From: a virus
IMG/VR virus record: IMGVR_UViG_3300045988_129366
Span: 12,651-76,650 of that record
DNA: 64,000 nt
Strand: one strand, 5' to 3'
A program made the translations under genes and the position numbers. The first letter of the stretch is position 1. Each line of letters begins with the position of its first letter. Below, piece by piece: positions 3,275-58,338 of the stretch. The notes under the pieces were generated by a model that was not told where the DNA came from, did no database searches, and saw only the letters and a program-made list of their open reading frames with translations.

Positions 3275-4598
3275 ATCGGGTGGGGTAAAATATCCCCCAC
3301 AATTCCTGCCCACTATGGATGGGCGGGATGGACTGACTTTCTCAGGCCTCCAGTGTTGCACCTCGCGATAATGATGATAGATAAACCGACACATCCCGGT
3401 AAACCTAACCAACGGCCTTTGCCCCACGCTGATGAGCCGCGCCTTTGAGAAAGCGAGAACTTGCTATTACCTCGGTCAGGGCAAAGTGTGGGCTTATTCG
3501 GCAATACTTGTGATAGATGATACCGAAAGTGATAAAAGTCGCCGACCTTTGGCGCGGCAAAATCGTTGACTCGCCGCAAGTCGCGAGGGTCTTTTGGAGC
3601 AAGGGAATATCTCCCTCAATCCTCTCCGACCAAGGCGGCGGTGGCAGACAGATAAAGTTTTTAGTAATCAATGACAAAACAACTCGCAATCAACCTCTAT
3701 AATGGAGTGTGCTGCACGCTCCACGCACGTTCAGGAGTACATTCGCCATACAACATCATGGATTGCCCCCCCCAGATTTCGTCAGACGGCGTTTGTAATA
3801 ATCGAAAATGAAAACAAAAAGAACGAAACTCCGCTACACCCTCGGACGCACCAACCACGGCGGCGAGGACGATAAATTCGGCACGAGCAAATTCCATGTC
3901 AACCCATATTTTGCCACCGTCACCGCGATACAGATGTCAAACAGAAGACAATGGATAGTAGAAATTACCCCCGATAATAGTTGCGACTGTCAAAGACCGC
4001 AATCCAAGTTATAACACAAAGATATGCCAGACGATAAGAAGCAACTCGCACGGGGCGATACCTCATTTCATATGGATAGAGCCGAAGCGATAAAGTTCAA
4101 GCTGATGCCGGACGGACACATTCGCGGAGTGCAGACGCAACGCCCCGACCTCGCGAGTGCCGCCGAGTGGATGATTTACTTCACGAACGTGTGCGCCCCG
4201 ACAATATCGGTCGCCCACGTTCCCAAACTTCTGATAACGGATGAAGCAATTCTTGAAAGTCTTATGCGTAGCGTCAAGAGGCAGAGGTGACAACAACGCC
4301 CAGCACTTCGAGGCGCGGACAGACGGATGCACCTCGACCTTAACAAGCGTGACCAAAGACAACCTTATACTCACGATATGCCGAAAGACTACAACGCGCC
4401 ATACTCCACGCCCTACTACGATGAGTTGAAGCATAACGGCATTCGCCTGCCATGCTTCCTCACGCACATCCGCACGGATGCGGCGAGGATAGAGAGGCCC
4501 AAGGACGCGAGGATGTTCCGTATGATGTTCCTGACTCCGAGAACTGACGGCTGCTGTGGAACTTTAGACACCCGGTCAATGAGCAATCTGATAATGGA
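3275..4598 (+). other. ~1.3-kb ORF-poor insertion separating the two halves of the C5-MTase; candidate self-splicing intron or other intervening element
   Basis: No convincing ORF; GC-rich structured stretches; flanked by MTase exon-like segments in different frames. Confidence 0.35.
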
Positions 4599-27294: not shown

Positions 27295-30200
27295 CTAATT
27301 TAAGAACGTGTTGAAGCCCGTAGTCGCGCCTTTCGTCCGCAACGCCCGTCCGAGCATGGTGTGTATCTCGGCAAGGTGCTGCTCCATCCGTGGCAGACTT
27401 GAAAGGTGCTGGTTGGCGGTCGTGAACATTTCGGTGTAATCTATCGCTCCCGTAGTGATACCCGAAGCTGTAGGCAATGCCACGCCACGCCCCTCCATAA
27501 GCGCAACCACCCTCGCAAGGTTCTCGTCTATGCGCGGAATCGGAGCGGCATAGTATAATAATGTGTTCCCGATCGCCGCAGCCGTGTTTATCTCCTCGGA
27601 AGTCGCCCCGGCTATATTTTTGGCTATGCCCGTGAAGCCCTCTGCTTTCTCACGTCCGTCATATCCCCATTTCTTTGCCCACTCCATGATGACAGCCCCG
27701 GCGGCATTGGCATCCTTAGAACCTTTGTCTGCGCTTTCCATTACTTTGCGCCAAAAGTTCTCGTCGTAGAAGTCGTCCTCATCCATCTCGTCTATCATCT
27801 TGAACGTGGGTTCCAATGCCCTCTGCATGGCTTTTGCCATAAGCGACTCCACCACCATGTTTTCTATCATCTCGTGGAACTTCTCGCTCATGGCATCAGC
27901 GGTGTTCCCGAACTCCTTGTATGCGTCAAGCCATGCCTGTGCGAAATCGCGTGCTGCGGATGTTAGGTCTGTGCCGAGCATCCGCTCCGCTATCTTGCCT
28001 TGCATGTCGGCTATCTGGTCGCCGATGTCGCGGGCTTTGTTAAGGAACTCCTGCGCCTTTTCCTCGTCAGCCTTTTTCCCTTTTGACATCTCCGCCTCAT
28101 ATTGCTTCATATAGGCTTGCTGTTGCGCAAGGAGTATCTTCTGCTGCTGTTTCTGATTCGCTACATAATCAGACCCGAACACCTTGTCAGCTGCTTTCTC
28201 CAACCGCCCGTAGGTGTATTCAAGCTGATCGAGAAGATTTTGCTGACGCTCAATCTCCTTGTTGGCCTTGCGGACTTTTGAACCGCTTATCCAAGATGCA
28301 ATGGCACTTCCTACCGCCAATACTCCTGCGGCAATGGCTATATACGGATTCGATTCAGCTATTGCGTTGAATATGGCTTGTGCGGTGGCGGCGGCGTTTA
28401 TCGCCGTGCTCATAGTTTGCAGAGAGCTGATTGCTGAATCGAATACAAGTCCGGCGGCTGAATCCTCAGATATGCCGAGCAAGTCTTTTATTTCGCTAAG
28501 CTCCCCTGCGAGTTGGTCTGCGGTTGAAGCTACTTTTTGCAAGTCTTTGAAAAACTTTGTTGTGGCTTTTTTCTGCTTGTCCTGCTCGCCCGTAACTTTT
28601 TGTTCGGCTTTCTTCACCTTATCAGCGGCTTTTGCTTTTGCCTGCTCTGCTTTGGCCACATTTGCAGTGGCTGTATTTAGCCGCAACTCAGCCGCAACAA
28701 TCTGATTCTCGGTTGCAAGTTCATTGTTTTTAAGGTCGTTCAGCACTCGCTGGGCTTCTACTTTCTCATCTTCGGCTGTGGCAATATCCTCGTCAAGTTG
28801 AGGAAGCTGCGCCTGATACTCCGCCTCGGCTGCTGTTAGTTCCTGCTTGGCGATTTTGAGATTCTTGATTGCAGCGATGTAGTCGCTGACAGACTGAATC
28901 ATATCGTTGCCGAATCCTCGCCCGCTTATCTGCTCGTCTATGTCCTCCATAGCCTTGACAAGCGTTTTCATGTTCTCCGGCGAAAGATTCTGATTGGTGT
29001 CTATCAACGCTTGCATTTCAGCGCGCAAGCGTTTAAGTGAGCTTGTGGCTACATTGTCAAGATTCTCAAATATCTTGATATAGTCCTCGCTCTTGGTGAA
29101 CTCCTCGAAATTTACCTTTGCCAAATCCTCGTCTTGCTTTCTCTGACTTTGAGCCGCAAGGCGGTCTTTCTCCTCCTGCGGAAGATTCGACTTGTATATC
29201 TCGGCTCTGCGCTGTGTCTCGCGGCTGATTATGTCCGTGCGCTGCTCCTCATAGTCTTTGGCTTTTGCAAGCTCTTTCTCCCATGTGGTGATATTGGAGG
29301 CGGCGGTTTTCTGCCCCTCATTGACTATGTTTTCTGCCGTGCTGCGGTTCTTATCGATGATTTGGTCTTGATACTTGTCGTATATGTCGGCTAGAGCCTT
29401 GTAGTTGATGCGCTGATTCGTCATGTCAAATACGGGAGAAAGGTCGATTTCGACATCTTTGTTCCCGCTCTTGAACACTTCCCGAATCTGCTTAACAGCG
29501 TCCTCAAACAATTCCTCGCCCGTTGAGCCGTAGATGCTCAAAGATACGCGGGTTGCCAGTTCTATATCCCCCGTCATCCCGAGTATCTTCTCATAAAACT
29601 CCTTCGCCGTCTTGGTGCGGGAAATGCGGTCGGAAAGAGCCTTTAGTTTTTTCTCCAACGCCTTTTGTAGAGAGTTAAGGTCTACATCCTCCAACTGCGC
29701 CACAGCCTCGTCTATCTCCTTGCCGATATTGGGGAAGAGCGGTTTGCCTTTCTTGTCGCGGAGCTTCTGCAACTCTTTCATCTTGTCGATGAAGTGCTGC
29801 ATGTTTGATTTCAGATTCTCGTCGGTGAAAGGCAGTTCAAACTCAAAACCGTACTTTCCTGCGCGGTCTTGAAGCGTCTTGATTGTATTGGAGTATATTT
29901 CTTGTATCTTCTCGGCAGCCTTTGTCGCCCCAATCTGTTTCTCCAACTTGTGATACTCGTCGTAGAGCTTCTTGGTGAGCGAGATTTCCTCTTTCAGATT
30001 TTGCAGACGGGGGTCGGAGGTGCGACCGCCTTTGTTCTTTTTCTCATCAGGGTCATAGAACTCCTTGAATGTATTAAAAAGAGTTGTGAGCTGTTCAAGT
30101 TTTTTCTCGGATTCATCAATCTTTATATCTGTAAGGGGATTCATCAAACGCGCAAGCAATCCCCATTTAGCGGTTTTCTCACGCTCTTGGCGAAGTTCCT

Positions 30201-32955
30201 TTAACTTCTGCTTTTCCGATTCCATCTCATCCTTGATGCGAGTGACGTAGGTTTTCCAGTCTTCGCCAGATTGCATAAGGAATCGGCTCATTTTATTGAT
30301 ATTCCCATGAGCATCCGTTACAATCTGATAGCCTTTCTCACGAGCCAACTGAACTTTACTGTCCGCCGGAATAACATTTCCCCATTCCTTTTGCAGTGCT
30401 TTTAGTCGCATGGTAAGGTCGGGATATTTGTCGCCCACCGCTTTGATTATCGCGTCAAAATTGACCTTTGTTATATCCATAAGGTCATTAGGATTAACGC
30501 TATCTACGAGATGCAGCCATTCGGGTTGAAGCTCCACCGCCTTTTCTTGAATAGCCTTTTTCATGTCCTCATCGTTTAAGATAAGGTCGCGGACTCGTTT
30601 CATCGCAGCATTAGCCTGCATCTGCTGATAAAGGAATGTATTAGCATCTACGGCACGACCATCGGAATACCGATAAGTGGTATTTTGAAGCGACTCTTTG
30701 GTTTGTTTGATTTTCTTGTCAAATTCACCGAGCTGCCCCGTTGCCTCACGGTATTCCTCATTCATCCCCCTTATCTCATCTGCTTGGTCTGCATAGGCTT
30801 CTGTTAAAGCCGTAATGTTCGCAAAGCCGGTATTGCTGCCAAAAATATCTCGCTGAGTAAATTCAAATTCTTTTTTCCAAATCTTAGCTATCAGCTTTGT
30901 ATCATCAACTCCGGCTTCCAGCATAGCCTCCCTGAATTTCTGATAAGTACTCTTGCCCGCTTGGGGTGCCAACTTCTCAAAAGCGGAAAAAAATCTTCCC
31001 ACTTCCGTAGCAGACAATCCTTGGTCGTAGAGCCTTTCTCGCACGTCATTTTGTGCGTCTCTAATCTTCGTGCCGTAATATTCAAATATGGCACTTTCTG
31101 CTTTCTGACGTTGCTGTTCTGCAATATATTCTTTGATGGATTGTGTCAGTTCGTCATAACCGTCTTTCATCCGAGATAAATTCTCGATGGTAAGAGATTC
31201 TTGGGGAAGAATGTCTTTGTAAGTACGATTAAGCTCATCAAGCGCATCTTTTTGTTCCTTGCTTCCGTTAGCAGCTTTAACAGCTTTATCTGCAAGAAAC
31301 TCAAAATTGCGCACACTTTGGTCTTGAAGCGTGGCAGTCTCGGTGTATATGGAATCTAACTCTCTTTTGAGTTTGCGGAAGTTGGTTATCGCTTCTGAAG
31401 TTTTATATATAAAGTCTATTAAAAAGGAGACCAATATGCCCATACCAATTCCTTTCAGAGCCGACTTGCCCAAAGACATGAACCCCATTTTAAGTTTGCT
31501 CTGCGCGGTGGCGTTTTTCTGTGCGGCTATTGCGGCGGCTTCGTCCGCTTTTGCTTTTGCAAGGCTTGAACGTGCCGCGTTTTGTGCCGCAACGTCAGTG
31601 CCTTTCATAGCGGTTGCGAGTTTTGCTTCCGCGATAATGCGCTCATTTGTTGCCGCAGTAACTGTTTTGGCAAGCGAGGTTGTTGCCATCTTCATAGCTC
31701 CCATAGCAGCCACAGCGGGAAGAATAGTGGTCGCCGCTGTAAGTCCAACCGCTTTCCAGTTTCGCATCAATTCGGTGAGCATTTGGATTGCTTCTTTCAT
31801 GCCCTCATTGACAATACCCGTGTTGCCAATCTGCTCGTACATCACGGAAGCGGCATCTCCCAATTTTTGCCACAAGCCGTATAAGGTGTTACCTTGCTGT
31901 ATCTGCATATTGTAAAACATACCTCCGGCATCCGTCATGTCGTAAAGCACCTCCTTTACCAACTCCCAAGAGATAGCTCGTTTTGAAATCATATCCATGA
32001 CCTCTGCCGTAGATACCATCTCGCCGTTCATCTTGGAAAGTTTGATAGATAGTTCCTCCAACAATGGCACTCCCAATTCTGTAAATTGCTTGAGTTCACT
32101 TGCGCGCAGGTAGGTGGCTGTTCTCGTCTGACCGGCGGCAAGCACAATGCGTTGATAATCAACGCCTAATCCAACTGAAATATCGGCAAAGCGTTTTGTC
32201 ATTTCAAACAGCTCGTCATACTCAATTTTGTATGCCGCGAGTTGCTTAGTGTATCTCGTCATGTCAAGAATCGACAATGGCGAGTTAAGCGCAAATTGTT
32301 TGATTTGCGAAAATATCTGCTCTCCTTTATTCGCATCCTGCAAAATCGCGCCGAGCGACACTCTTTGCAATTCAAACTGTGCGGTTACTTCTCTTACCGA
32401 TGTAAGGAAATTGCCGACCATTGAAAATGACGCATATATAGCCATCTTCTTAATAAGTCGTTCAAGATAGCCGCTTTGGGCGCTATATGCTTTTGATGTT
32501 CTGTCAGCCTGTTGCGCCGCCCTCTGTTGCGACAATATCAGACGCCCCCCTGCTTGTCTTACACGCTCCTGCGACAGACGGAGTTTTTCATCTGCTTGCG
32601 CCACATCCTTTCGCAGTTTAGCGGCTTTAGCCATCTGCAACTCCGGCAACTCAATCCCCTTGAACTTCTGAATCTTCTCCATGATACGGGCAAGCTCTTT
32701 CAGCTCGCGCACCAAGTCCCTGATAACGGTCTTGTTCTCGGGGGTAAGTGGTGTTATCTTTAACTCCGCAAGCCGCCTCTTGACATCATCAAGATTGTCA
32801 AACGCCTTGGTGTCAAATTTCAATTTGACATTCAACGTCCGTTTCTGAATAGCTTTCTCCAACTTGTCGGCATACTTGCCGTCCCAGTCTTTAATCGCTG
32901 CCTCTACTCCTTTTTCAAGGTCGAATACTATCGGGAATCTTAAATTTTCCGCCAT
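27295..32955 (-). CDS. tail tape measure protein
   Basis: 1886 aa, strongly helical K/E/A/Q-rich, internal hydrophobic segments (ILPAVAAMGAM..., GMGILVSFLIDFIY), position between chaperone and distal tail genes. Confidence 0.85.
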   Translation of the reverse strand: MAENLRFPIVFDLEKGVEAAIKDWDGKYADKLEKAIQKRTLNVKLKFDTKAFDNLDDVKRRLAELKITPLTPENKTVIRDLVRELKELARIMEKIQKFKGIELPELQMAKAAKLRKDVAQADEKLRLSQERVRQAGGRLILSQQRAAQQADRTSKAYSAQSGYLERLIKKMAIYASFSMVGNFLTSVREVTAQFELQRVSLGAILQDANKGEQIFSQIKQFALNSPLSILDMTRYTKQLAAYKIEYDELFEMTKRFADISVGLGVDYQRIVLAAGQTRTATYLRASELKQFTELGVPLLEELSIKLSKMNGEMVSTAEVMDMISKRAISWELVKEVLYDMTDAGGMFYNMQIQQGNTLYGLWQKLGDAASVMYEQIGNTGIVNEGMKEAIQMLTELMRNWKAVGLTAATTILPAVAAMGAMKMATTSLAKTVTAATNERIIAEAKLATAMKGTDVAAQNAARSSLAKAKADEAAAIAAQKNATAQSKLKMGFMSLGKSALKGIGMGILVSFLIDFIYKTSEAITNFRKLKRELDSIYTETATLQDQSVRNFEFLADKAVKAANGSKEQKDALDELNRTYKDILPQESLTIENLSRMKDGYDELTQSIKEYIAEQQRQKAESAIFEYYGTKIRDAQNDVRERLYDQGLSATEVGRFFSAFEKLAPQAGKSTYQKFREAMLEAGVDDTKLIAKIWKKEFEFTQRDIFGSNTGFANITALTEAYADQADEIRGMNEEYREATGQLGEFDKKIKQTKESLQNTTYRYSDGRAVDANTFLYQQMQANAAMKRVRDLILNDEDMKKAIQEKAVELQPEWLHLVDSVNPNDLMDITKVNFDAIIKAVGDKYPDLTMRLKALQKEWGNVIPADSKVQLAREKGYQIVTDAHGNINKMSRFLMQSGEDWKTYVTRIKDEMESEKQKLKELRQEREKTAKWGLLARLMNPLTDIKIDESEKKLEQLTTLFNTFKEFYDPDEKKNKGGRTSDPRLQNLKEEISLTKKLYDEYHKLEKQIGATKAAEKIQEIYSNTIKTLQDRAGKYGFEFELPFTDENLKSNMQHFIDKMKELQKLRDKKGKPLFPNIGKEIDEAVAQLEDVDLNSLQKALEKKLKALSDRISRTKTAKEFYEKILGMTGDIELATRVSLSIYGSTGEELFEDAVKQIREVFKSGNKDVEIDLSPVFDMTNQRINYKALADIYDKYQDQIIDKNRSTAENIVNEGQKTAASNITTWEKELAKAKDYEEQRTDIISRETQRRAEIYKSNLPQEEKDRLAAQSQRKQDEDLAKVNFEEFTKSEDYIKIFENLDNVATSSLKRLRAEMQALIDTNQNLSPENMKTLVKAMEDIDEQISGRGFGNDMIQSVSDYIAAIKNLKIAKQELTAAEAEYQAQLPQLDEDIATAEDEKVEAQRVLNDLKNNELATENQIVAAELRLNTATANVAKAEQAKAKAADKVKKAEQKVTGEQDKQKKATTKFFKDLQKVASTADQLAGELSEIKDLLGISEDSAAGLVFDSAISSLQTMSTAINAAATAQAIFNAIAESNPYIAIAAGVLAVGSAIASWISGSKVRKANKEIERQQNLLDQLEYTYGRLEKAADKVFGSDYVANQKQQQKILLAQQQAYMKQYEAEMSKGKKADEEKAQEFLNKARDIGDQIADMQGKIAERMLGTDLTSAARDFAQAWLDAYKEFGNTADAMSEKFHEMIENMVVESLMAKAMQRALEPTFKMIDEMDEDDFYDENFWRKVMESADKGSKDANAAGAVIMEWAKKWGYDGREKAEGFTGIAKNIAGATSEEINTAAAIGNTLLYYAAPIPRIDENLARVVALMEGRGVALPTASGITTGAIDYTEMFTTANQHLSSLPRMEQHLAEIHTMLGRALRTKGATTGFNTFLN

Positions 32956-40320: not shown

Positions 40321-40331
40321 AATTCTATTTG

Positions 40332-40403
40332 TGGCGCGGGACGGACTCGAACCGCCGACCTTTGGGATATGAACCCAACGAGCTACCGCTGCTCTACCGC
40401 GCT
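40332..40403 (-). tRNA. tRNA-Met (anticodon CAT), initiator-like
   Basis: Hand-folded cloverleaf: D-arm GAGC/AGCGGTA/GCTC, anticodon arm TTGGG-TTCATAT-CCCAA (three G-C pairs next to loop), T-arm GGCGG-TTCGAGT-CCGTC, acceptor with 1:72 A-C mismatch, A73, no encoded CCA. Confidence 0.7.
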
Positions 40404-40840: not shown

Positions 40841-42607
40841 ATGTTCAGACTGCTCAATTCTGACATACAATTTCCGGCACTCTATCCCCGCGTAGAGCGC
40901 AAACTTGCCACGGTCAAAAGCAAGAGCAAAACGATTGTGGGAGGGTTTGAGTTGCGCCATAAAATAGACTACATTCCGCAGGTGGGGCTTCAGGAGAATG
41001 TATGCGCCTCGGAGTGTAATCTTGTGTTTATGTGCGGACAAGGCACGTCGGGCAAGACTTTCTCCATGTACCTTAAAGCACTTTCAGGCGTAGACAAGCA
41101 GGATTTCAAGGCTCGTCTTATCTCCGTCCGTGCATTGGACTCCAAAAAAGGTTCGTCAATTTTCACGGACGGTGTAAAGGTCTGCGGAGGCTTTGCTGGA
41201 TGTCAAGCAAGTTCATCAGATATTCCCTCGTTTGTATGGCCGCAATGGAACTCAAACCTCCAGCTCATACACTCAAATTTCAACTACGCCAATCCCGACG
41301 AAAAAAAGCTGTTTGAGGACTACGCCAAGAAAAATCAAGCTTCGCTGATAATGATTGACGAGGCGACCGAAATGAATCACTTCGGCATGTTCTCGTTTTG
41401 GTTCATGCGTAACCGCGATGATTCGGGTATGATTCCGCAGATGATTCTCTCGTTCAACCCTCTACATGAGCATTGGACTACGGAAATGTTACGTGACGCA
41501 GGCTATCTCGGAGCGGACTGGTATCTGCGCAGGGATATGATCGGCAAGATACGCTATTTCTATGTTAAGGGTGACACTCCGGCTGAAATTATTTGGGGCG
41601 ACACGCGCGAGGAAGTTGTAGAGAAAGCCAATCCCCGAATATCGCAGGAGGACAGAGAGGCGGGACTTACCGAAGCCGATATGGTGAAATCGTTTACCGT
41701 GTTTACCGGCACTGCCGCAGATAACCGCGAGCTTGTAAACGCCACAGGTGGTCAGTCAGTCGCCAACCTCCACGCTGTCGGCGGAACACAACGCGCCATT
41801 GTCGGAGAGGCATACTTCGGTCCGGTGGAAAACGAAGAAATCAACGTAAGCCGCTCAATGATCCATTCGTTGTGGGAAAACCCGATTGGCAGCAAGGATG
41901 CTAACGTATATGCCACAATGGATATTTCCAAAGGAGGCGTTGATTCCGACGGCTGCCCCTGCATCATTTGGAAAGGCTTGCAGATAATAGCCATTGAGTT
42001 TTTCCGAAAAGACACCGAATCCGAGGAAACACATCAGTTGGAGAATTTCATAAACGGCATACTCTTTCGCTACAACATACCAATCTCAAACTTCGCCTAC
42101 GATGCAAACGGCATTGGCGGTCTGATTGAGGACTTCCTAAAAAAGGGGGCGAGAGGCATTAGCGGTCAAGGACGGGTAGAACAGGAGTATGACGAGAATG
42201 GTAATCAGGTAACGGTAGCGAGATATTTCAACCTCCGCTCGCAACTTCTCGGTAAGACAGAGATAATGCTGAAAAAGGGAGAAATCTCCGCTGGCGTAAG
42301 CAAAGACCTTGTAATCCCCTACGGCAAGAAAGGACAACGCCGCCGTCTAATCGACGTGCTTTTCGATGAAATCAACGTGTTCATCACAACCGACCGCAAC
42401 GGCAAAATCTACTACCGCAAGAAAGAGGAATACAAGGACAAATTCAAGTCCTCGCCCGACCTAATGGACGCTATTTCCTACCGGGCAATCTTTGAACTCG
42501 ACACACGCGAGAGGAAACAACCCACTCCACAAGTCGCCTCGGACGCATACGACGCGCTCTATCAAAATATAAACTACGGATGGGGAAGCCGACGGATTCA
42601 TAGATAA
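40841..42607 (+). CDS. terL: terminase large subunit
   Basis: Walker A CGQGTSGKT, Walker B LIMIDEATE, 588 aa, followed by portal-sized ORF. Confidence 0.8.
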   Translation: MFRLLNSDIQFPALYPRVERKLATVKSKSKTIVGGFELRHKIDYIPQVGLQENVCASECNLVFMCGQGTSGKTFSMYLKALSGVDKQDFKARLISVRALDSKKGSSIFTDGVKVCGGFAGCQASSSDIPSFVWPQWNSNLQLIHSNFNYANPDEKKLFEDYAKKNQASLIMIDEATEMNHFGMFSFWFMRNRDDSGMIPQMILSFNPLHEHWTTEMLRDAGYLGADWYLRRDMIGKIRYFYVKGDTPAEIIWGDTREEVVEKANPRISQEDREAGLTEADMVKSFTVFTGTAADNRELVNATGGQSVANLHAVGGTQRAIVGEAYFGPVENEEINVSRSMIHSLWENPIGSKDANVYATMDISKGGVDSDGCPCIIWKGLQIIAIEFFRKDTESEETHQLENFINGILFRYNIPISNFAYDANGIGGLIEDFLKKGARGISGQGRVEQEYDENGNQVTVARYFNLRSQLLGKTEIMLKKGEISAGVSKDLVIPYGKKGQRRRLIDVLFDEINVFITTDRNGKIYYRKKEEYKDKFKSSPDLMDAISYRAIFELDTRERKQPTPQVASDAYDALYQNINYGWGSRRIHR

Positions 42608-42624: not shown

Positions 42625-44340
42625 ATGAACAAACTCGATGTAAACATTAGCCAACATCTTAAAAAGCAATACTGGAAACGCCGCGTGGTAGGCGATTTGC
42701 CCGTGCCACCACCGACCGACAACGGACACTATGAATTTCCAGTCAACGAGCCAGCGGGTGTAAATTTCCGCTATCTCTCGCAGGAGGACTTTATGAGGGA
42801 AATAGAGCCATCGGCTCACGACATAAATTCAAAATACCAAAGCACTCGCCCTATCCGAGAGTTATTCGATGTCAAAGACGCAGAGGGGCAACCGATACTT
42901 GATAAAGACGGCAACCCCAAAAAGGAGTGGCGCATTGTAGGATTCGACGATTTGGAAACCACTCGCTACGGCTTGCAGAAACGAATTGCCCTCACCAAAG
43001 CCGCACATTTCGCCGGAGAGGGATGGGGAATCTACAATGAGCAATCCGATACATCAAAAGAAGCTCACGAACGTTTCGACCGCCTGAACTCATGGAAAGA
43101 TGTTGCGGGATATGACAATCTGTTTATGGAAGCGGCTCTTTCCTGCTTTCAGACCGGCGACTTCGGGTGCTACCCCTATGTTACCCCCGACGGCTCTATC
43201 GAATATATGTCATATTCCTACCTCGACGGCTACGAGATATTCCCGGACATTGACGAGAACCGCAATGAAGCTTTCTATGTATCGTATTCCCTCAAAGGTC
43301 GCCCGGCGGTTGATGTATTTAAGGTTGACGCAATCGAGACATGGGTTCAGGCAGATTTGACAAACACCGAAAACAGCGGAGTGCAGTCATGGTTCAGCAA
43401 GGTAAAAAATTGGTTCAAGAGTCGCGACTTCGCCGTGAGCGAGGACGGTTGGCATCGAGTAGCCCGGCGTGAGACGCAGACGCCCGCCGGATTGGGGCAA
43501 TTTATTTATTGGCGCATACCCGATATTCCCAGCGGTGTGGCTCAGGAAGATATATCGGCGTTGGAACGTACTGCGTCTTACGTTGCCGAGGGTGTCAAGG
43601 CTACGACATTCGACACACTATTCATTAAGGCAACAAAAATAAAGAACTTGCCCGGCATAGGCGGCGCAGGAAATGTGATTGGCGTGGAGGGCGATGTGGA
43701 TTCCGTCAAAGCCGCCGACGCCAAACGCATCGCTCCGAGCGATGTTTCCAACGTCGCTACAATCGACATCAAAGAGAAAAAGGATAGCATACTTCACTCA
43801 ACACTCTCCGTCATCGTTGATCCAGAAGTGCTTCGCAGTGGAGCCGATTCGGGGGCAGCCATGAAACTCTGTTTCAACGATGAAGTGAAGTGGTGTATGA
43901 CAATGCAGCCTCACTTCTACAAGCCGCTCAAAAAACTTGTCGCAATTCACAAGGCGCTCGTAGCTAAAATCGAGGGCGACGGCGAGTATATGAAAATACG
44001 TTGTTCTGTCGGTATGAACATTTGGATTCCCCAGAACTTCAGTGAAAATGTCGAAAATGTCTGCAAGCTCAAATACGCGGCTATTCTCTCCGCTGAAAAT
44101 TCACGCCATGAACTCGACATCAACTACCCAGACGATATGAATATTATCCGTAAGGAAGTTGAGGAAGATTTATACCAAAAGACTTTCGTGCCACTTAAAG
44201 CCAAGTATGAGGCAGAAAAAAAGTATGGCATTGCAGATGTGGCTGACGATGTGATTGTCAGTGAAAAGGACGATGCAAACCCCGATAAACCGCAAGACCA
44301 ATCAAGGCAAGGCGTGACGAACCAAGCTACGAGACGTTAG
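42625..44340 (+). CDS. putative portal protein
   Basis: 571-aa ORF directly downstream of terL. Confidence 0.55.
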   Translation: MNKLDVNISQHLKKQYWKRRVVGDLPVPPPTDNGHYEFPVNEPAGVNFRYLSQEDFMREIEPSAHDINSKYQSTRPIRELFDVKDAEGQPILDKDGNPKKEWRIVGFDDLETTRYGLQKRIALTKAAHFAGEGWGIYNEQSDTSKEAHERFDRLNSWKDVAGYDNLFMEAALSCFQTGDFGCYPYVTPDGSIEYMSYSYLDGYEIFPDIDENRNEAFYVSYSLKGRPAVDVFKVDAIETWVQADLTNTENSGVQSWFSKVKNWFKSRDFAVSEDGWHRVARRETQTPAGLGQFIYWRIPDIPSGVAQEDISALERTASYVAEGVKATTFDTLFIKATKIKNLPGIGGAGNVIGVEGDVDSVKAADAKRIAPSDVSNVATIDIKEKKDSILHSTLSVIVDPEVLRSGADSGAAMKLCFNDEVKWCMTMQPHFYKPLKKLVAIHKALVAKIEGDGEYMKIRCSVGMNIWIPQNFSENVENVCKLKYAAILSAENSRHELDINYPDDMNIIRKEVEEDLYQKTFVPLKAKYEAEKKYGIADVADDVIVSEKDDANPDKPQDQSRQGVTNQATRR

Positions 44341-51632: not shown

Positions 51633-51680
51633 CAAATATAGTGTAATATTGTCAATTATGCAAGTAATTCTATAATTCAG
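51633..51680 (-). promoter_or_regulatory. Bacteroides-type promoter with conserved upstream motif (copy B)
   Basis: minus strand ctgaattatagaattacTTGcataattgacaatat tacac TAtaTTTG. Confidence 0.5.
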
Positions 51681-53172
51681 ATTTAGATTTTTGCAGACAA
51701 AAACCATAGCCAGTCCCTTGTCTGTGCTTGAAGCAACCCTTTTGCGAAAGCATAGCGGATAAGTCCGTGGGATATTTGCGTTTACTTCCCTCCATTTCAC
51801 AATATGCCGAGTATTCAGCATACAAGTCTTTAAGGCTTCGCCAACAATCCAAATCCTTTTCCCCGACCGCCTCATACTCGTTCTCAGCCCACCATCGGCG
51901 CATATTGTTGCTCCCTGCCATAATTATCTCCTGCGACTTCTTCATATCCTCTCCCATCACAATATCCCCCTTGTTCTTGGCGAAGATGCGGTAGCCCTCC
52001 ACAATCCAATGAAAGATATACATAAGAGCTTCGGGGCGAGTCAGCTTGTAGGTAAGGCTCGTGTCTCTGTCCTCGCCCGTAAACGCCCGTGTGGTCGTAT
52101 GCACCACAAGCCGTCTGCGCTGTCCGCCGTAACTATCATCGTCAGTCTCGGGCATAGTGTTGGCACAGCATAGCAACGGAGGAGCGATCACCTTCACGGG
52201 CTTCTTGTCGTAAGGCACACGCCCCTGGAACTCCCCACCGCTCGCAAACCGCTTAAAGTCACCGCCCGAAAGCTCCTTGCCGTCCATATCGTCTATGAAG
52301 TTGGCTACCTTATTGGCGAGAGCCGCGATATTCACGTTGCGGTCGCTGTCCTTGAACAACTGACGGAACGAAAAGCACGAAAAATACTCCTTGCCAAACA
52401 CCGAGGCTATAACATTCGATACAACGCTCTTGCCGTTTGCTCCGGGGCCAAGCAAAAAGAGCACATAATCAAGTGTAAATTGACTTTTATCGGCGATAAG
52501 TGCGCCACACCATTGCTGAAACACACTCCGGGCGTCCTTATTCGGGATAATCTCGGCGATTTTCTCGTCCCACAGCTTGCAGGGATTACCGAAAGTGCCG
52601 TATTTCTCCGCGCACTCGCGGTAAAGCTCGTCCTTATCCTTATATTCGAGGTCAAGCACGATAGCCGGGCATTGCTCCACAGCGGGCTTCACCGCCTTGC
52701 GCTTCTCCACGTCATACACGAGGTTTCTGAACGCCACATAACGCCGATTCGGGCGATAGAGATATTTGTCGCTGCTCGAAATGGTGTCAAGGCAGCTCAT
52801 CGCGATAGCCTTTGCAGGGTACTCGTCATTGTATTTCTCGCCCAAATCAAGCTCGATAAACGCCCGCTTGAGCAATTCCTTTAAGAAGATCTCTCTGTCC
52901 TCCACACGCACGAAACAAACGCCGTTAAACGCATATATCGCGCTCTTGCTCCCGTCCGAGAGAAAGCGCTTCATCTTGTCCTCGCAAATAAGGTTACGGA
53001 CAATCGCCCTCAATCGGTCAACGCGACCCTGATACACGTTCTTGTCGTATTTGCCGAGACCTCTCAGCTTCCCTCCGTCCTTGCCCTTTGAATAAAGCCG
53101 CTTATACTCCGCCTCCATCGCAGGGCAGAGCCAATCCAAGAGATAGCGATAGATTTGTTCTGAAACTAACAT
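51670..53172 (-). CDS. DNA primase/helicase (D5 / P4-family SF3 helicase)
   Basis: Walker A LLGPGANGKS, 500 aa, phage replication context. Confidence 0.7.
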   Translation of the reverse strand: MLVSEQIYRYLLDWLCPAMEAEYKRLYSKGKDGGKLRGLGKYDKNVYQGRVDRLRAIVRNLICEDKMKRFLSDGSKSAIYAFNGVCFVRVEDREIFLKELLKRAFIELDLGEKYNDEYPAKAIAMSCLDTISSSDKYLYRPNRRYVAFRNLVYDVEKRKAVKPAVEQCPAIVLDLEYKDKDELYRECAEKYGTFGNPCKLWDEKIAEIIPNKDARSVFQQWCGALIADKSQFTLDYVLFLLGPGANGKSVVSNVIASVFGKEYFSCFSFRQLFKDSDRNVNIAALANKVANFIDDMDGKELSGGDFKRFASGGEFQGRVPYDKKPVKVIAPPLLCCANTMPETDDDSYGGQRRRLVVHTTTRAFTGEDRDTSLTYKLTRPEALMYIFHWIVEGYRIFAKNKGDIVMGEDMKKSQEIIMAGSNNMRRWWAENEYEAVGEKDLDCWRSLKDLYAEYSAYCEMEGSKRKYPTDLSAMLSQKGCFKHRQGTGYGFCLQKSKSEL

Positions 53173-53588
53173 AGATTTTCGTAATCGTTAATACAAAGTG
53201 TGCCGTTCACCATATCCTCGGCTATTTCATCACACACGGCATCGTGCATGGCATCTGCCTCCATTTCCATATCGGGTTTATCCAACTCCCAATTTGAGGA
53301 AAATCCAATCCTTTTGGTTACGTCCACATCGTGATATTGGCTATCGTCTGCGAGAAACGCCATTGTTTCAAAATAGCGATTATGTCCGACAGTATCAAAA
53401 GCTACTTTGCCGTGTTTCCAATATTCTTGACGTTGGGCTATCGGCATATAACGTCCAACAGTAGATACTACCACCTTTTGCTCTCCGTATTTCAGCAAGG
53501 TGTTTCTATGATACAGACAGTCAGTGCTGCCAATGAAATGACCGCACCAACCGCGTTCTGTCCGTTTTACTTTTTCGCTCATATTCAC
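53166..53588 (-). CDS. hypothetical protein
   Basis: 140-aa ORF. Confidence 0.4.
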   Translation of the reverse strand: MNMSEKVKRTERGWCGHFIGSTDCLYHRNTLLKYGEQKVVVSTVGRYMPIAQRQEYWKHGKVAFDTVGHNRYFETMAFLADDSQYHDVDVTKRIGFSSNWELDKPDMEMEADAMHDAVCDEIAEDMVNGTLCINDYENLC

Positions 53589-53989
53589 TCCTTTATCAGT
53601 TCAACTCCGCATAGCATATAGTAGAGGCTTTCAAGCTCATGCAGGTATCTCAGTTTTAGTTGATTATAAAACCACCACGGATGTGCCTGCATTACGTTAT
53701 TGTCAATGCGCATCATGTCGCAATACCAGCTATCAAAACCGATAGCCGAACTCATGCCTTTCCTAAACCCCAACTCTTTCAGCAATTCGGGCGTTATCGG
53801 GATAGGCTCAATCGCATTAGATGTAGAAGGCACGTACCCCAAAGACGAGAAGATTTTTGCCTCGTGTTGAATTATTACCTGAAAGACGTTAAACGGCGAC
53901 CTGACGGGTCTTATTCCTACAACGCGCTCACGTTTGCCGTTGACAAGGATGTGTGAGCCAATTGTCAAAGTTTTTACATCTACTGCCAT
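53585..53989 (-). CDS. hypothetical protein
   Basis: 134-aa ORF. Confidence 0.4.
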   Translation of the reverse strand: MAVDVKTLTIGSHILVNGKRERVVGIRPVRSPFNVFQVIIQHEAKIFSSLGYVPSTSNAIEPIPITPELLKELGFRKGMSSAIGFDSWYCDMMRIDNNVMQAHPWWFYNQLKLRYLHELESLYYMLCGVELIKE

Positions 53990-53990
53990 A

Positions 53991-54365
53991 TCACAATATT
54001 GAATATAAATAAGACACTAATGCGCTACCCGCTTCAAACAATATGGGTATGCCAATCAGCAATGCGCCTATCCATGAGAGAGTAGCACTCCAAATCTTGT
54101 TGCTATATGGATTGTTGTGCCCCTCTATTCGGCGAGCGATTAAACCCACTGCAAGCATGAGCAATCCTATCAAGGCAATTACAATGGAAAACGCCAGCGT
54201 TACTTTTGTATTGTGCGCATTTACTACTGCCCCGCAGTCAAGTTGCCATGCTATATATTTATCAACTATACTCATATCATTCCCCCTCCTTGAAAAAATC
54301 CGCGCCGAAGATGCGCTCCATCCATATCCTTGCGGCATAGTTGGCGCATGAGGCACACTCAACAC
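53991..54365 (-). CDS. small two-TM membrane protein
   Basis: TLAFSIVIALIGLLMLAVGLI and WIGALLIGIPILF helices. Confidence 0.4.
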   Translation of the reverse strand: MLSVPHAPTMPQGYGWSASSARIFSRRGNDMSIVDKYIAWQLDCGAVVNAHNTKVTLAFSIVIALIGLLMLAVGLIARRIEGHNNPYSNKIWSATLSWIGALLIGIPILFEAGSALVSYLYSIL

Positions 54366-54579
54366 CTTTGTTCTTGCCGTAGTCCGACATGGCTTGATAG
54401 GCTTTCCTCACCCTCTCTTTCTCTTTGGGGGTGAGACGCGAGGCGAGAGGTAACTGCATAAGTGCCTCCGCTCCGCTGACAAAACAGTCCGTCCAACCGT
54501 CCTTATCATCGCAGGTGTCGCCGTTTATTACCTCGTTGAGATAATATTCGCTCGCTAATTCTTCTATTGTCTTGGTCAT
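54277..54579 (-). CDS. hypothetical protein
   Basis: 100-aa ORF overlapping previous. Confidence 0.35.
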   Translation of the reverse strand: MTKTIEELASEYYLNEVINGDTCDDKDGWTDCFVSGAEALMQLPLASRLTPKEKERVRKAYQAMSDYGKNKGVECASCANYAARIWMERIFGADFFKEGE

Positions 54580-54674
54580 TGTTAATATTATTTAAAGTTT
54601 AATGGTGTTTTATATCGTCTCATTTCCTTAATTGTTATCTTTGCATAGCAAATTATTTCAAAACATCTACCGGC

Positions 54675-55184
54675 ATGAAAGACAACGCTTTGGCTGTTGC
54701 TAATTATTTTGTGGATTTGGCCAAGAGAGACAGAAAGCCAATAACCCTTCTTGGTCTTGTCAAGCGTGTATATATTGCTCACGGCTTCTCTTTGGCGATA
54801 TTCCATAAATCCTTGCTTGACCCTCGCTTTGACAAGGTTGAGGCTTGGAGATATGGCCCGGTTATTCCTTGTGTCTATCATTCTTTCAAACAGTTTCGCG
54901 CCAATCCAATAACTGAAAAGACAGATGTGATGGAGTGGAATGATAGTGATTGTACGCTAACATTCCATGCCCCAGAACTAAAGGATGGGGAAGCGAAGAA
55001 GATAGTCGAAATGGTTTGGAAGCGTTATTCGGGAATGTCCGACAGTCAGCTTGTGACACTAACACATAAGAAAGGAAGCCCATGGGATGTTTGTTATATC
55101 GAAGGGCGAAATAACGAGATTCCTGACGGTGTAACGGAATTGTATTATCGTAAAGTTGTTGAAGCGACCACCACCACCTGCTGA
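54675..55184 (+). CDS. Panacea-domain (DUF4065, SocA/PanA-like) antitoxin-type protein
   Basis: ALAVANYFVDLAK...LGLVKRVYIAHGFSLA...VEAWRYGPVIPCVYHSF matches Panacea hallmarks (ANYF..; KL.K.LY.A; W..GPV.P.VY). Confidence 0.75.
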   Translation: MKDNALAVANYFVDLAKRDRKPITLLGLVKRVYIAHGFSLAIFHKSLLDPRFDKVEAWRYGPVIPCVYHSFKQFRANPITEKTDVMEWNDSDCTLTFHAPELKDGEAKKIVEMVWKRYSGMSDSQLVTLTHKKGSPWDVCYIEGRNNEIPDGVTELYYRKVVEATTTTC

Positions 55185-55185
55185 T

Positions 55186-55545
55186 ATGTCTGACCAGGAA
55201 GATATTCTCAACTGCCTTACAGAGGACACTGCGTCCGAAACGACCGTCAGTGTCGATGGTGAGATTCAGGAAACACAGCTTGAATTTCTGAAAGCAAAAG
55301 TCGAGCGTCTTAAATCCGAAATTAAGGATATTGAGCAAGACCGTCCCGAGCGCAAACGATTCAGCAATTACATATTCGCTTTTATGTGCATTTATGTGCT
55401 TGCGACTATTGTACTGGTTATACTTACTGGTTGCGGCGTACTGACACTCTCTGATACAATTTTGGTTACTCTTCTCACGACCGCACTTGCAGATGTGATT
55501 GGGGTGTTTACATTTGTCGCCAAATACCTTTTTCATCGGAGCTAA
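55186..55545 (+). CDS. small two-TM membrane protein, candidate cognate toxin/effector of Panacea module
   Basis: Starts 1 nt after PanA-like stop; acidic N-terminus, coiled coil, C-terminal helices IFAFMCIYVLATIVLVILTGCGVL and ILVTLLTTALADVIGVFTFVA. Confidence 0.45.
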   Translation: MSDQEDILNCLTEDTASETTVSVDGEIQETQLEFLKAKVERLKSEIKDIEQDRPERKRFSNYIFAFMCIYVLATIVLVILTGCGVLTLSDTILVTLLTTALADVIGVFTFVAKYLFHRS

Positions 55546-55555
55546 CACATTACAT

Positions 55556-55762
55556 TCATATCTTCTCAAATTTCAGCCCGAAACACCAACGGAGCATAAG
55601 CCGCTTGAATCGGGAGATGGGTTTATAGACTGATATTCTGCTCATGGTCGGTTCGTGAACGAGCTGACCTATCGGGTCGGGAAATTTAATTGTATTATAC
55701 CCTGCCGCTTTCCAACCCGCTATGTTTCTTTCTCTTTCTTTGATTTTACTTTGTCCTATCAT
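55556..55762 (-). CDS. hypothetical small protein
   Basis: 68-aa ORF. Confidence 0.3.
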   Translation of the reverse strand: MIGQSKIKERERNIAGWKAAGYNTIKFPDPIGQLVHEPTMSRISVYKPISRFKRLMLRWCFGLKFEKI

Positions 55763-55763
55763 C

Positions 55764-56384
55764 TCACTCTCCTTTCTTTATCAGTTCCAGCGCGGATGCT
55801 ATGCCCTCGCTCAACGCTTGATTATAGTTTGAGTAACGCTTGTTGAGCCTACGCGCTTCTTTGTGTAGATAGACCACATTACAATCATAGACTACCTCAT
55901 TGACTGATTCCAACGTAGGGTAAACGTGTATGTTCCATTTCTCCCGCAGCCACTTCTGGGCGTGATAGAGTAACGGCGCATTGGCAATAACCTTGCCATC
56001 GGGATTGGTGAAACCATTTTGCGATTGGGTCGGGTGGAATACCAATATCTTTAAATCAGGATATTGCCTTTTTGTATCTTCGAGGCATTTGCGTTCCCAT
56101 TCACGGTAAGACGTTGATAACCCCGTTGCGGCAATAAAGCCTGTCGCAACGAGGCTTCCCGGCAATAAAAAAGCATCTTTTGTATTAGGTAATACCTTTA
56201 TCAGTTCGATGAACTTCGCAGCGTCGGGGTAGGCTTTCGCAAACATCCGCTGGAACGCGTCGGGGGCTACGCCGAGCGTTCCTTCCATCGAGGAATCCCC
56301 TACGGTGAACACTGTTCTGCGATTCGTCTTGCGGAACAATTTTCTGTATGCCTTTTTGAAAAGGTCTTTGATTTCCTGTTTCAT
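55764..56384 (-). CDS. hypothetical protein co-transcribed with MTase
   Basis: 206-aa ORF, 4-nt overlap with upstream MTase. Confidence 0.45.
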   Translation of the reverse strand: MKQEIKDLFKKAYRKLFRKTNRRTVFTVGDSSMEGTLGVAPDAFQRMFAKAYPDAAKFIELIKVLPNTKDAFLLPGSLVATGFIAATGLSTSYREWERKCLEDTKRQYPDLKILVFHPTQSQNGFTNPDGKVIANAPLLYHAQKWLREKWNIHVYPTLESVNEVVYDCNVVYLHKEARRLNKRYSNYNQALSEGIASALELIKKGE

Positions 56385-57115
56385 ATCTCTTGTTTTTGAG
56401 ATAGGTTATAATCCAATTTAAGTTGCGCCTGAGCGTCCTTTACTCGCTTCACGGCAATGTCGTAATACTCCTGCATCAGCTCTATCCCGATACCTCTGCG
56501 TCCCGTGTTGGCGCAAGCGACCATTGTAGAGCCGCTTCCCATGAACGGGTCGAGAACAACACTATTCTTATCAGTTGAGTTACATACAAATCTCTCCATG
56601 AGGGTTATCGGTTTCTCTGACGGGTGTACTTTGGTTCCATATACACCCTTACACCCTCGAATGAGAGCCGTATCTCCCATGTGTCTTATATACTCCGCTT
56701 TGCCTTTACACATAAACAGAATAAACTCTATATCCTTTCTGTAATATTGTATCGGGGTAGCCATTCCTTTATCCCACACAAGGATGTTTAGCAAATGGAA
56801 TCGAGCGCTTTTAGCAGATGATAAATAATCGCACAAATTCTTGTCATTAGTCATACAATAAAATTGTCCGCCATTGCGTAGTACTCGGTACAATTCCTGC
56901 ATCCAAATAGATGTTTCGGGAATTTCAAAGAACTTGCCCTTGCCAACCTCTGCCGATGACAGCTTGGAAAACCTCACAATCTTCTTGTTATGTCCTCCGC
57001 CCACTAATTTATAGGGAGGGTCTGTAACGACGCAATCCACACTGCTGTCAGGTATTCCTTTCAGCAGTTCAAGGCAGTCGCCGCGCAGGAGGGTGATGTT
57101 GTCTGTTTTATTCAT
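56381..57115 (-). CDS. DNA methyltransferase (N6-adenine/N4-cytosine, DPPY family)
   Basis: VVTDPPY (motif IV) and LDPFMGSGST (motif I) in beta-class order; start at internal ATG 57115 overlapping upstream stop. Confidence 0.8.
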   Translation of the reverse strand: MNKTDNITLLRGDCLELLKGIPDSSVDCVVTDPPYKLVGGGHNKKIVRFSKLSSAEVGKGKFFEIPETSIWMQELYRVLRNGGQFYCMTNDKNLCDYLSSAKSARFHLLNILVWDKGMATPIQYYRKDIEFILFMCKGKAEYIRHMGDTALIRGCKGVYGTKVHPSEKPITLMERFVCNSTDKNSVVLDPFMGSGSTMVACANTGRRGIGIELMQEYYDIAVKRVKDAQAQLKLDYNLSQKQEI

Positions 57116-57399
57116 TCTGAATCCTTTTGAGTACAACTTTGCGCCTTTTGCCACCACATATCGAAAACAACATCGCCATCAACACCCTCTATGTGTGTCG
57201 CCACATATTTTGCCAAATCTGTAAGGCGGATTGTTTCTATCATTCTCAAAACGATATTGATTTCCAATAACCGTTCTTCCTTGCCTCCCACATTTGAGGA
57301 CATACAAGACGCAATTACAGAAACGATAGCTGTCTTATAATCCAAGTCCTTTTCCATGTAGGCTCGGATGTCTCGTTCTTTATGCTCGTTATTTTTCAT
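57112..57399 (-). CDS. hypothetical protein
   Basis: 95-aa ORF. Confidence 0.4.
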   Translation of the reverse strand: MKNNEHKERDIRAYMEKDLDYKTAIVSVIASCMSSNVGGKEERLLEINIVLRMIETIRLTDLAKYVATHIEGVDGDVVFDMWWQKAQSCTQKDSE

Positions 57400-57429
57400 A
57401 TCGGCTCTTTTGGCTCTTGGTTGTTATTA

Positions 57430-58338
57430 TCAGTTGTTGAAATATTCAGCACAGCGGAATCCGCGCCTCGGCTCATAATCCATAAAATCCATACCTTTGA
57501 AAAGCCATGCGCGGTTAGCCCATCGCGCCAAATCCTTTTCGTATGCGGTCGGCACACGCTTGTTCTCAAAGTCGCGGTAAGGCTGCACAAACGGTAATAT
57601 TTTCAATTCTTTCAGTCTGCGAAGCCTATACAAGTCCTGCTCGGGTGTGGAGTTGAACCCGACAAGCACATAGCAATAAATCTTGTACGGCTTGATGTGT
57701 TTCGTCACCTCGCGCAGTTTGTCCGTCAAGTCTATCTGCGGCAGATCCCACGCGATATGGATAGGTTTGAGCAGCGGCAGCTTATTCAGCCAATATGCCT
57801 GTTCCTCATTCATGATCCGCACGTCAACGCCATGCAGATTGACTTTCTGTTTCGCTTTCAGAAGATAATCCACGGCAGACTTCCATTCCGGATTAGCGAA
57901 GAAGTTGTTGTCAAGGACTTCTATATGCTTGCTGCGAGGATTGAGTCCTACGGGTTCCACAGGGTGTATGCCTCCCTCCTTGTCATGCACGAGACAGAAC
58001 GGGCAATGACGAATGCAACCGCGCGAGAAGAACTGAATTGAAAAGTCGTATTGAGGATATAGCGAATAATCCATAAGCGTTGACTGCTCGACTTCCTCCG
58101 GCAATCGACTCTTGATGTCATAGCCACTCCCTCCACAAACGACCTCACAATTCCACGGAGTATTGTCATCGGGCGAGAATGTGAATATCTTTGATTTGTA
58201 GACCCTATCGTAGTCTGAGCCAAACATTGCGTCAGCCCATTCTACGCTGTCCCCGTGAGCCTTGTGCCACGCGGATAACCGCATCAGCGCAAAGTTCGGG
58301 AAGTTGTGTCCGTCTATGTCTATCAGTCCGATGTTCAT
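57430..58338 (-). CDS. radical SAM domain protein (phage Gp37/Gp68-like)
   Basis: FSRGCIRHCPFCLVH = CX3CX2C radical-SAM cluster motif; 302 aa. Confidence 0.65.
   Translation of the reverse strand: MNIGLIDIDGHNFPNFALMRLSAWHKAHGDSVEWADAMFGSDYDRVYKSKIFTFSPDDNTPWNCEVVCGGSGYDIKSRLPEEVEQSTLMDYSLYPQYDFSIQFFSRGCIRHCPFCLVHDKEGGIHPVEPVGLNPRSKHIEVLDNNFFANPEWKSAVDYLLKAKQKVNLHGVDVRIMNEEQAYWLNKLPLLKPIHIAWDLPQIDLTDKLREVTKHIKPYKIYCYVLVGFNSTPEQDLYRLRRLKELKILPFVQPYRDFENKRVPTAYEKDLARWANRAWLFKGMDFMDYEPRRGFRCAEYFNN

Follow-up and report, generated by a model that had tools for sequence, protein, structure and literature searches.

Does a pair of small genes that runs against its surroundings in a viral genome encode a toxin–antitoxin (TA) module and, if so, of which kind? 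The pair lies at positions 54580 to 55545 of a 64,000-nucleotide (nt) stretch of the IMG/VR record IMGVR_UViG_3300045988_129366 (positions 12,651 to 76,650 of that record). We refer to the whole stretch as the window and number all positions from its first letter. The pair consists of a Panacea-domain gene, panA (gene 1), followed by a gene for a small membrane protein, panT (gene 2). Domain identity, homology to an experimentally validated pair, strict linkage, accessory status and purifying selection lead us to regard it as a likely type II PanA–PanT TA cassette, an accessory "moron" of a tailed temperate phage whose host is of the Bacteroidales type.

54675..55184, + strand: panA, 169 amino acids (aa), with its TGA stop ending at 55184
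55186..55545, + strand: panT, 119 aa, starting with an ATG at 55186

Both open reading frames (ORFs) are present as described in the original prediction, which was made from the letters alone: all three Panacea peptides that it quoted fall within the product of 54675..55184, and the 119-aa partner begins after a gap of 1 nt. Every flanking gene is on the − strand, in keeping with the description of a + strand pair inside a − strand replication block. The ORF list also offers a TTG start for panT at 55156; we prefer the ATG at 55186 because the conserved protein of the homologues starts at an ATG that overlaps or directly adjoins the stop of panA.

Gene 1 encodes a Panacea protein. It matched PF13274 (SocA_Panacea) with an E-value of 1.9e-16 and 61.4 bits (gathering cut-off 25.7) over profile positions 1–112 of 113, so that a hidden Markov model (HMM) search confirms the identity first proposed from sequence hallmarks, and it also matched phrog_1281 (E 1.2e-33). 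The Panacea domain stands alone, without an N-terminal helix-turn-helix (HTH), PAD1 or ZBD domain. A phmmer search of the PDB sequences found no significant relative of PanA with a solved structure. By analogy with studied Panacea proteins, PanA is a predicted antitoxin.

SocA is the protein in which the Panacea domain was originally characterised, and a SocAB-like (type VI) arrangement, in which PanA would be a proteolytic adaptor passing PanT to ClpXP or another protease, has to be weighed here. The NCBIfam model NF047745 (SocA_antitoxin) does match gene 1 (E 1e-28, 100.2 bits), but the score is far under the equivalog cut-off of 190 bits, identifying gene 1 as a Panacea protein and not SocA itself. 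The partner, moreover, is a membrane protein unrelated to SocB, and a protein embedded in the membrane would be an unlikely ClpXP client. Direct complexes were recovered for the PanAT pairs in the pull-downs of Kurata et al. 2022, a set that held no membrane PanT (PMC8832971), and a related stand-alone PanA neutralises a membrane PanT directly, through an interface confirmed by mutagenesis (PMC10440598). We therefore consider a proteolytic adaptor highly improbable.

The acidic N-terminus and two C-terminal transmembrane (TM) helices ascribed to gene 2 agree with charge counts, hydropathy and structure prediction. Residues 1–50 contain 14 D/E and 5 K/R; over its full length the protein has a pI of 4.6. 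Kyte–Doolittle 19-residue windows exceed 1.6 at approximately residues 59–97 and 83–112. The AlphaFold2 (AF2) model, with a mean predicted local distance difference test (pLDDT) score of 65 and approximately 77–84 in the TM part, comprises a disordered segment (residues 1–26), a long helix (27–82) running into TM1, a short turn and a further helix (90–116); the part that precedes TM1 is thus modelled largely as one long helix. Reading the TM limits from hydropathy together with this model, we divided the protein as follows.

55186..55263, + strand: residues 1–26, an acidic, poorly conserved tail, predicted to be disordered (pLDDT <50; mean pairwise identity 0.18 in alignment A1)
55264..55371, + strand: residues 27–62, a predicted long cytoplasmic helix (part of AF2 helix 27–82) ending in QDRxxRKxFS (residues 51–60)
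55372..55437, + strand: residues 63–84, predicted TM1 (Kyte–Doolittle 19-mer maximum of 2.78 at 63–81), continuing helix 27–82
55453..55533, + strand: residues 90–116, predicted TM2 and the C-terminal VAKYLF (Kyte–Doolittle >1.7 at 90–112; AF2 helix 90–116)

Conservation is uneven along this plan. Compared with the tail, mean pairwise identity is 0.34 over helix residues 27–50, 0.65 over residues 51–62, 0.57 in TM1 and 0.84 in TM2 with the C-terminal motif, the last being the most conserved stretch of the family and the tail the least. Residues Q51, D52, R53, R56 and S60 are invariant in alignment A1. For gene 2, Pfam, NCBIfam and PADLOC have no model with a significant match, and its best PHROG, phrog_5346 (E 4.9e-7), has no known function. 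Sub-threshold matches to DUF6584, DUF2207_C, RexB and MAG1210 in Pfam, NCBIfam and PADLOC were taken as noise. Foldseek returned no PDB match for the PanT model at E ≤ 0.001, as expected of a helical hairpin at pLDDT 65.

The partner had been described as lacking a recognisable family, and this proved incorrect. A word-indexed search with gene 2 recovered 26 homologues of 43–95% identity, and a profile built from them, run against 1.84 billion representative proteins, matched 2,903 clusters (at 50% identity) with E ≤ 1e-3, of which 939 reached E ≤ 1e-10. The best family matches listed are mostly 100–180 aa long, and the members that we fetched share one plan: a variable, charged or coiled N-terminus, QDRxQRKxF, TM1, an LSD loop, and a TM2 with TTTANVIGIFxFVxKYLF. 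Two members of 120–133 aa in the JGI/IMG data (P0013 and P0077) are labelled "fatty acid desaturase" and "cation transport ATPase", spurious names that arise because the family lacks a curated model.

The family is tightly linked to Panacea. A homologue of gene 1 lies directly upstream of the gene 2 homologue, on the same strand, in 51 of 51 examined loci whose upstream gene is intact; tblastn with gene 1 confirmed 41 of these, and the other 10 have an upstream gene labelled PF13274.

L001–L020: 20 loci from look-ups of encoding contigs and a species-genome scan, by tblastn with gene 1
L021–L041: 21 loci on IMG/VR viral contigs, by tblastn with gene 1
L042–L045: four loci, Bacteroides fragilis members with 31% identity
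L046: one locus, a distant member of 170 aa
L060–L063: four loci, close relatives with 76% and 87% identity
L064: one locus, a member of 160 aa

Linkage persists where gene 2 identity is as low as 31%, on contigs labelled Prevotella, Duncaniella, Bacteroides fragilis, Pseudomonadota or viral. In the ten loci that were measured, the spacing between panA and panT ranges from −35 (an overlap) to +16 nt, which is the conserved same-strand, abutting or overlapping two-gene arrangement sought by FlaGs. These observations support the PanA-type TA architecture first suggested for the unit. Within the pairs, PanA is the more conserved protein: in L001, for example, it has 83% identity and its partner 43%, and in a Pseudomonadota metagenome-assembled genome (MAG) the values are 36% and 31%. 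Searches by tblastn for gene 2 in the INPHARED phages, and for its Pseudomonadota homologue in the PLSDB plasmids, found nothing.

Some loci deserve separate mention. At L041 (2413–3093) the PanA is 61% identical to that of the window, and the next protein matches gene 2 only at residues 88–118; this toxin gene may have replaced its N-terminal half or be degraded. MAGs labelled Clostridium sp. (L016) and Treponema sp. (L018) carry pairs whose PanAs are 72% and 51% identical, respectively, to that of the Bacteroidales-type module, and L016 has the Bacteroides-type promoter motif TAAATTTG. Both contigs are probably phage sequences that were mis-binned into these MAGs.

Judged from the ratio of nonsynonymous to synonymous substitution rates (dN/dS, ω), both genes are under purifying selection. 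Against close relatives, dN/dS is approximately 0.04–0.07 for the two genes (approximately 0.05 for panA) and is relaxed, at approximately 0.13–0.19, over PanT residues 1–50; all these values are rough because dS is saturated. Positive selection on the N-terminal tail, which we also considered, is not supported by an ω of that size.

The functional assignment rests on homology to a validated pair. When phage genomes were searched by tblastn with PanA, 135 of them proved to have Panacea genes, among them Escherichia phage 1720a-02 and Stx2-converting phages. We traced the 1720a-02 pair by megablast against RefSeq E. coli genomes and read the annotation of the best match (L055). There the antitoxin is WP_000287252.1 ("Panacea domain-containing protein") and the toxin WP_000019185.1, the very accessions of "PanA Esc. 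col." and "PanT Esc. col." in Table 1 of Kurata et al. 2022 (PMC8832971), which Dataset S1 of that study places in cluster T3, with order A|T, a 22-nt spacer, the verdict "TA" and the flag "NotPhage". PanT Esc. col. halts transcription, translation and replication alike, causes strong depolarisation together with uptake of SYTOX Green, which was read as the formation of large pores, and is neutralised by its cognate PanA (PMC8832971). Cluster T3 in Dataset S1 also includes Bacteroidetes, namely Parabacteroides merdae, Chitinophaga, Dyadobacter and Tenacibaculum (PMC8832971).

Three methods connect the window PanT to this toxin. The family HMM, built from alignment A3, scored WP_000019185.1 at 35.0 bits, and a second PanT from an E. 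coli Stx phage, WP_001292087.1, at 32.9 bits. Alignment of the family to WP_000019185.1 by hhalign gave a probability of 95.4% (E 1.8e-8) across 94 columns that cover the helix and both TM helices. BLASTP with the window PanT gave 25% identity over 100 aa (E 2e-8). Both hhalign and BLASTP align the TM2 region with LLGTSTISIVGLVGFVVSGLFK of the E. coli protein. The antitoxins are related as well, the window PanA being 32% identical to WP_000287252.1 (E 4e-28). Sequences shuffled in 10-residue blocks, a procedure that retains hydropathy, scored a mean of 2.8 bits on the HMM (standard deviation 3.9, maximum 15.0, 500 shuffles). Reversed sequences scored approximately −1 bit, proteins with TM segments from genes that follow PanA in Halomonas and Pseudomonas phages −1 to −2 bits, and every other open frame in the window at most 3.2 bits. 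The low scores of shuffled, reversed and unrelated TM sequences argue against an artefact of hydrophobicity. By the family profile, the genes downstream of PanA in the Halomonas and Pseudomonas phages are not members of this toxin family. In a Helicobacter cinaedi prophage, the 93-aa product of the gene after PanA was likewise set aside, having no TM segment and no profile match.

The suggestion that gene 2 might be a novel toxin thus gives way to membership of a family homologous to the E. coli toxin of cluster T3. By this analogy, PanT is a predicted membrane-depolarising or pore-forming toxin of a T3-like PanT superfamily; the label T3-like denotes homology to the validated toxin, and the FlaGs cluster may be T3 itself or a neighbour with Bacteroidetes members (T1, T5). 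The window pair and that of E. coli STEC O31 share the order of antitoxin then toxin, a stand-alone Panacea domain, and a toxin in which a charged N-terminal region and a long helix precede two TM helices at the C-terminus. They differ in toxin length (119 aa in the window against 182 aa, because the N-terminal tail is shorter), in the spacer (1 nt against 22 nt), and in the Bacteroidales-type host and TAnnTTTG promoter motif of the window pair. The neighbours of the STEC O31 locus are phage-like genes and a pseudogene, a truncated tRNA-dihydrouridine synthase; the locus is also present in phage 1720a-02.

The second E. coli pair, WP_000331648.1 and WP_001292087.1 (a 126-aa toxin), is found in strain E2863 (L054, 501–1351) and in Stx2-converting phage F004 (L052). 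It directly follows a BsuBI/PstI-type restriction-modification system in Stx2 prophages, and occurs in 22 of 5426 complete E. coli genomes.

Is the cassette a fixed part of the phage or cargo? Taken as a unit, the window represents a tailed temperate phage or prophage of the gut Bacteroidales type. Both proteins recur unchanged on a contig of 430 kb from public assemblies, a finding suggestive of an integrated prophage. The features needed to place the module are these.

54636..54643, + strand: candidate Bacteroides-type −7 element TATCTTTG (TAnnTTTG), 31 nt before the panA ATG, in the 95-nt gap 54580..54674
54277..54579, − strand: left flank, a 100-aa phage gene with function unassigned, one border of the variable cargo site
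55556..55762, − strand: right flank, a 68-aa phage gene, the other border of the variable cargo site
51670..53172, − strand: neighbouring DUF5906 primase/helicase-like gene
56381..57157, − strand: neighbouring N6_N4 DNA methylase
57430..58338, − strand: 302-aa radical-SAM protein (phrog_9298, "radical SAM domain protein", E 2e-126)
40841..42607: large terminase
42625..44340: portal
40331..40403, − strand: phage-encoded tRNA-Met (CAT), just upstream of the terminase gene
27295..32955, − strand: tape-measure protein, 1886 aa
13420..20733 and 21818..25378, − strand: tail-fibre-like giants of 2437 aa and 1186 aa
62533..63768: integrase

The accessory status proposed for the pair is supported by comparison with other contigs, which shows it not to be a conserved core phage gene pair. 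A homologue of 121 aa (P0015) and its PanA occur in identical form on six contigs with different neighbours, and of the close relative pairs (76% and 87% toxin identity) one adjoins a Dam methylase in its phage and the other, in a different phage, lies 1.8 kb from a portal gene that is followed by a terminase. Three viral contigs (L057–L059) keep the left-flank gene and have no PanAT at this site; two of them keep the primase (79–86% identical) and one keeps the right-flank genes. On L059, whose primase is 86% identical, a 356-aa HTH_3 + P63C gene (2868–3938, − strand of the locus) occupies the PanAT site in the opposite orientation, between homologues of both flanks, and L058 has an HNH endonuclease there. 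These differences in cargo point to a variable hot spot bounded by the flank genes of 100 aa and 68 aa. The module is also poorer in GC than the window (41.6–43.7% against 49.2%, some 6–8 points lower). Absence from phages that share the flanks, low GC and the upstream TAnnTTTG motif together indicate an accessory moron cassette.

The promoter motif is where it had been reported, except that it begins one base further left than the 54637..54644 originally given. TAnnTTTG occurs 46 times in the window against 35.4 ± 5.5 expected and is not significantly enriched, so a single copy proves little and the element is best described as a presumptive promoter. It is also found 28–58 nt upstream of panA in six of ten homologous loci checked. 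A scan for sigma-70 promoters and intrinsic terminators around the module gave nothing beyond chance.

This setting bears on whether the genes could instead form a lysis-timing pair, with gene 2 as a class II-like two-TM holin and the Panacea protein as a cytoplasmic antiholin or regulator. Gene 2 is a small phage-encoded two-TM protein whose validated E. coli homologue makes large pores, and it has very weak matches to PHROG holins (E 0.23–0.39), but these are not significant and do not place it in the holin class. The pair stands on the opposite strand in a replication/methylase block with no endolysin nearby, and its absence from close relatives would be intolerable for an essential lysis gene. 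Family members also occur outside an evident phage context, for example beside a bacteriophage exclusion (BREX) pglZ gene, and the "NotPhage" flag of the E. coli pair points the same way. A role in lysis timing is thus extremely unlikely.

Several further observations concern the surroundings. A 124-aa ORF with a GTG start (53991–54365, − strand) overlaps the 100-aa flank gene by 89 nt; within it, an internal ATG at 54275 (MSIVDKY...), 1 nt past the upstream stop, would start a protein of 94 aa with two hydrophobic stretches and a weak Neurensin match, another small membrane protein beside PanAT. The very large ORFs at 13420–20733, 21818–25378 and 27295–32955 have no Pfam match, and PHROGs identifies them only in part, as tail-fibre-like and tape-measure proteins. 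A blastn search with 53000..57500 against phages covered only 3% of the query, outside the module, with Dulem virus 40. This phage, from lemur gut, shares three short patches of 94% identity, the sole DNA similarity of the region to deposited phages; they fall at the radical-SAM region, and the annotation in Dulem virus 40 is Fe-S oxidoreductase / molybdenum cofactor enzyme.

How might a PanA–PanT cassette of this kind work? The two genes would probably be co-transcribed from their own TAnnTTTG promoter, opposite to the replication genes, and the 1-nt gap means that their translation may be coupled. PanT would insert into the cytoplasmic membrane through its C-terminal helical hairpin. When free, it may oligomerise, dissipate the membrane potential and probably form pores, as does its distant E. 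coli homologue. PanA would keep it inactive by direct binding, most likely at the cytoplasmic helix and the QDRxxRKxFS that precedes TM1. We infer an interface centred on this helix from the variable tail, the invariant QDRxxRKxFS and two PanA motifs, YGP and THxxGxPW, whose residues Y60 and H131 are invariant across the PanAs of the clade.

A guide to the interface is the PanT(D11)–PanA pair of Bartonella choladocola/apis (T12), studied by Ernits et al. 2023, in which a stand-alone Panacea protein directly neutralises a small membrane toxin, and mutagenesis showed contacts with the unstructured N-terminus of the toxin and with a short helix before the TM region (PMC10440598). PanT(D11), which we liken to the window toxin by description, likewise has a charged N-terminus, C-terminal TM helices and an interface on the pre-TM segment; its authors consider T12 possibly homologous to T3. 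The Bartonella interface residues Y56 and H120 are equated with window Y60 and H131 by motif position only. Also compared by description, the PanT of Helicobacter sp. 13S00482-2 (T4) has a coiled-coil N-terminal part and C-terminal TM helices and is neutralised by PanA, but it depolarises membranes without permeabilising them to SYTOX. HokB, RmrT (of RosmerTA) and RexB are further small membrane-depolarising proteins restrained by a partner, some of them active in phage defence. They have no significant sequence relationship to the window PanT, and their partners and regulation differ (a type I antisense RNA, the RmrA zinc peptidase/HTH protein and RexA, respectively).

A number of points weigh against a TA module, or against this account of it. 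The homology to the validated toxin is distant, at 25% identity, and lies mostly in membrane helices. The toxicity and neutralisation experiments are those on that distant E. coli homologue, to which the Bacteroidales members are linked by homology. PanA is without a DNA-binding domain, no intrinsic terminator lies near the module, and the upstream gap has no operator-like inverted repeat. In PADLOC-DB v2 neither protein satisfies a defence-system model: PanA has no match, and PanT only weak ones to RexB (E 1.4e-3, 16.9 bits) and PDC-M46B (E 1.3e-3). The tail contacted by Panacea in Bartonella corresponds to the least conserved part of PanT here, whereas PanA is highly conserved. This contrast would be compatible with binding at the conserved juxtamembrane helix, which it fits but does not prove. 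Finally, 8 of the 25 PanTs examined by Kurata et al. were non-toxic in E. coli and five were toxic yet unrescued by PanA (PMC8832971), so that membership of a PanT family is no guarantee of TA behaviour.

The non-toxic PanTs raise another reading, in which gene 2 would encode a harmless anchor in the inner membrane that signals or keeps DNA from entering, with PanA as a soluble sensor docked on it; the two would form a superinfection-exclusion or membrane-sensor pair and have no TA relationship. Moron status, the pair's own promoter motif, carriage on a prophage and the variable N-terminal tail of gene 2 would suit such a function, and Panacea has been proposed to act as a sensor by Ernits et al. 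(PMC10440598). Against this, the most conserved part of gene 2 is the TM hairpin that it has in common with a depolarising, pore-forming toxin, and strict linkage with overlapping start and stop is a classic signature of the control of TA stoichiometry. We regard a non-toxic pair as unlikely, and favour a TA cassette.

If so, loss or inactivation of PanA would free PanT and the cell would stop growing or die. Possible triggers include loss of the prophage, shut-off of host expression or a signal from an infecting phage, and the outcome would be a stabilised prophage, an aborted competing infection, or both. The cassette could accordingly act in prophage addiction, in abortive infection or in exclusion. 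As far as genomic context goes, defence is hinted at only by the distant family member at L046 (193–3943; also at L047 and L048), where PanA and PanT (172 and 170 aa) lie 28 nt upstream of a 904-aa PglZ (BREX) on the same strand, an adjacency which suggests that the cassette can sit within a defence island or operon. More tentatively, T3-like PanAT may, beyond addiction, serve the temperate phages of gut Bacteroidales as an abortive-infection or superinfection-exclusion device, the highly conserved Panacea domain sensing a product of a competing phage and releasing the pore-former, with fast divergence of the acidic tail tuning trigger specificity or escape from inhibitors encoded by phages. 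We hold this to be possible though doubtful; if true, a biological trigger would be known for a Panacea system for the first time, and Bacteroidales would gain a new defence family.

The pair is a real but ordinary new member of the known PanAT system, and the current view of how such systems work is unchanged by it. Its practical value lies mainly in annotation: a very large toxin family has been without a curated model, with misleading database labels as the result, and a profile from alignment A3 would permit routine recognition. The finding extends the PanAT membrane toxins, a class with an experimental foundation, to the temperate phages of gut Bacteroidales, organisms whose TA and defence biology is thinly characterised, and provides a convenient entry point to PanAT function in gut phages.

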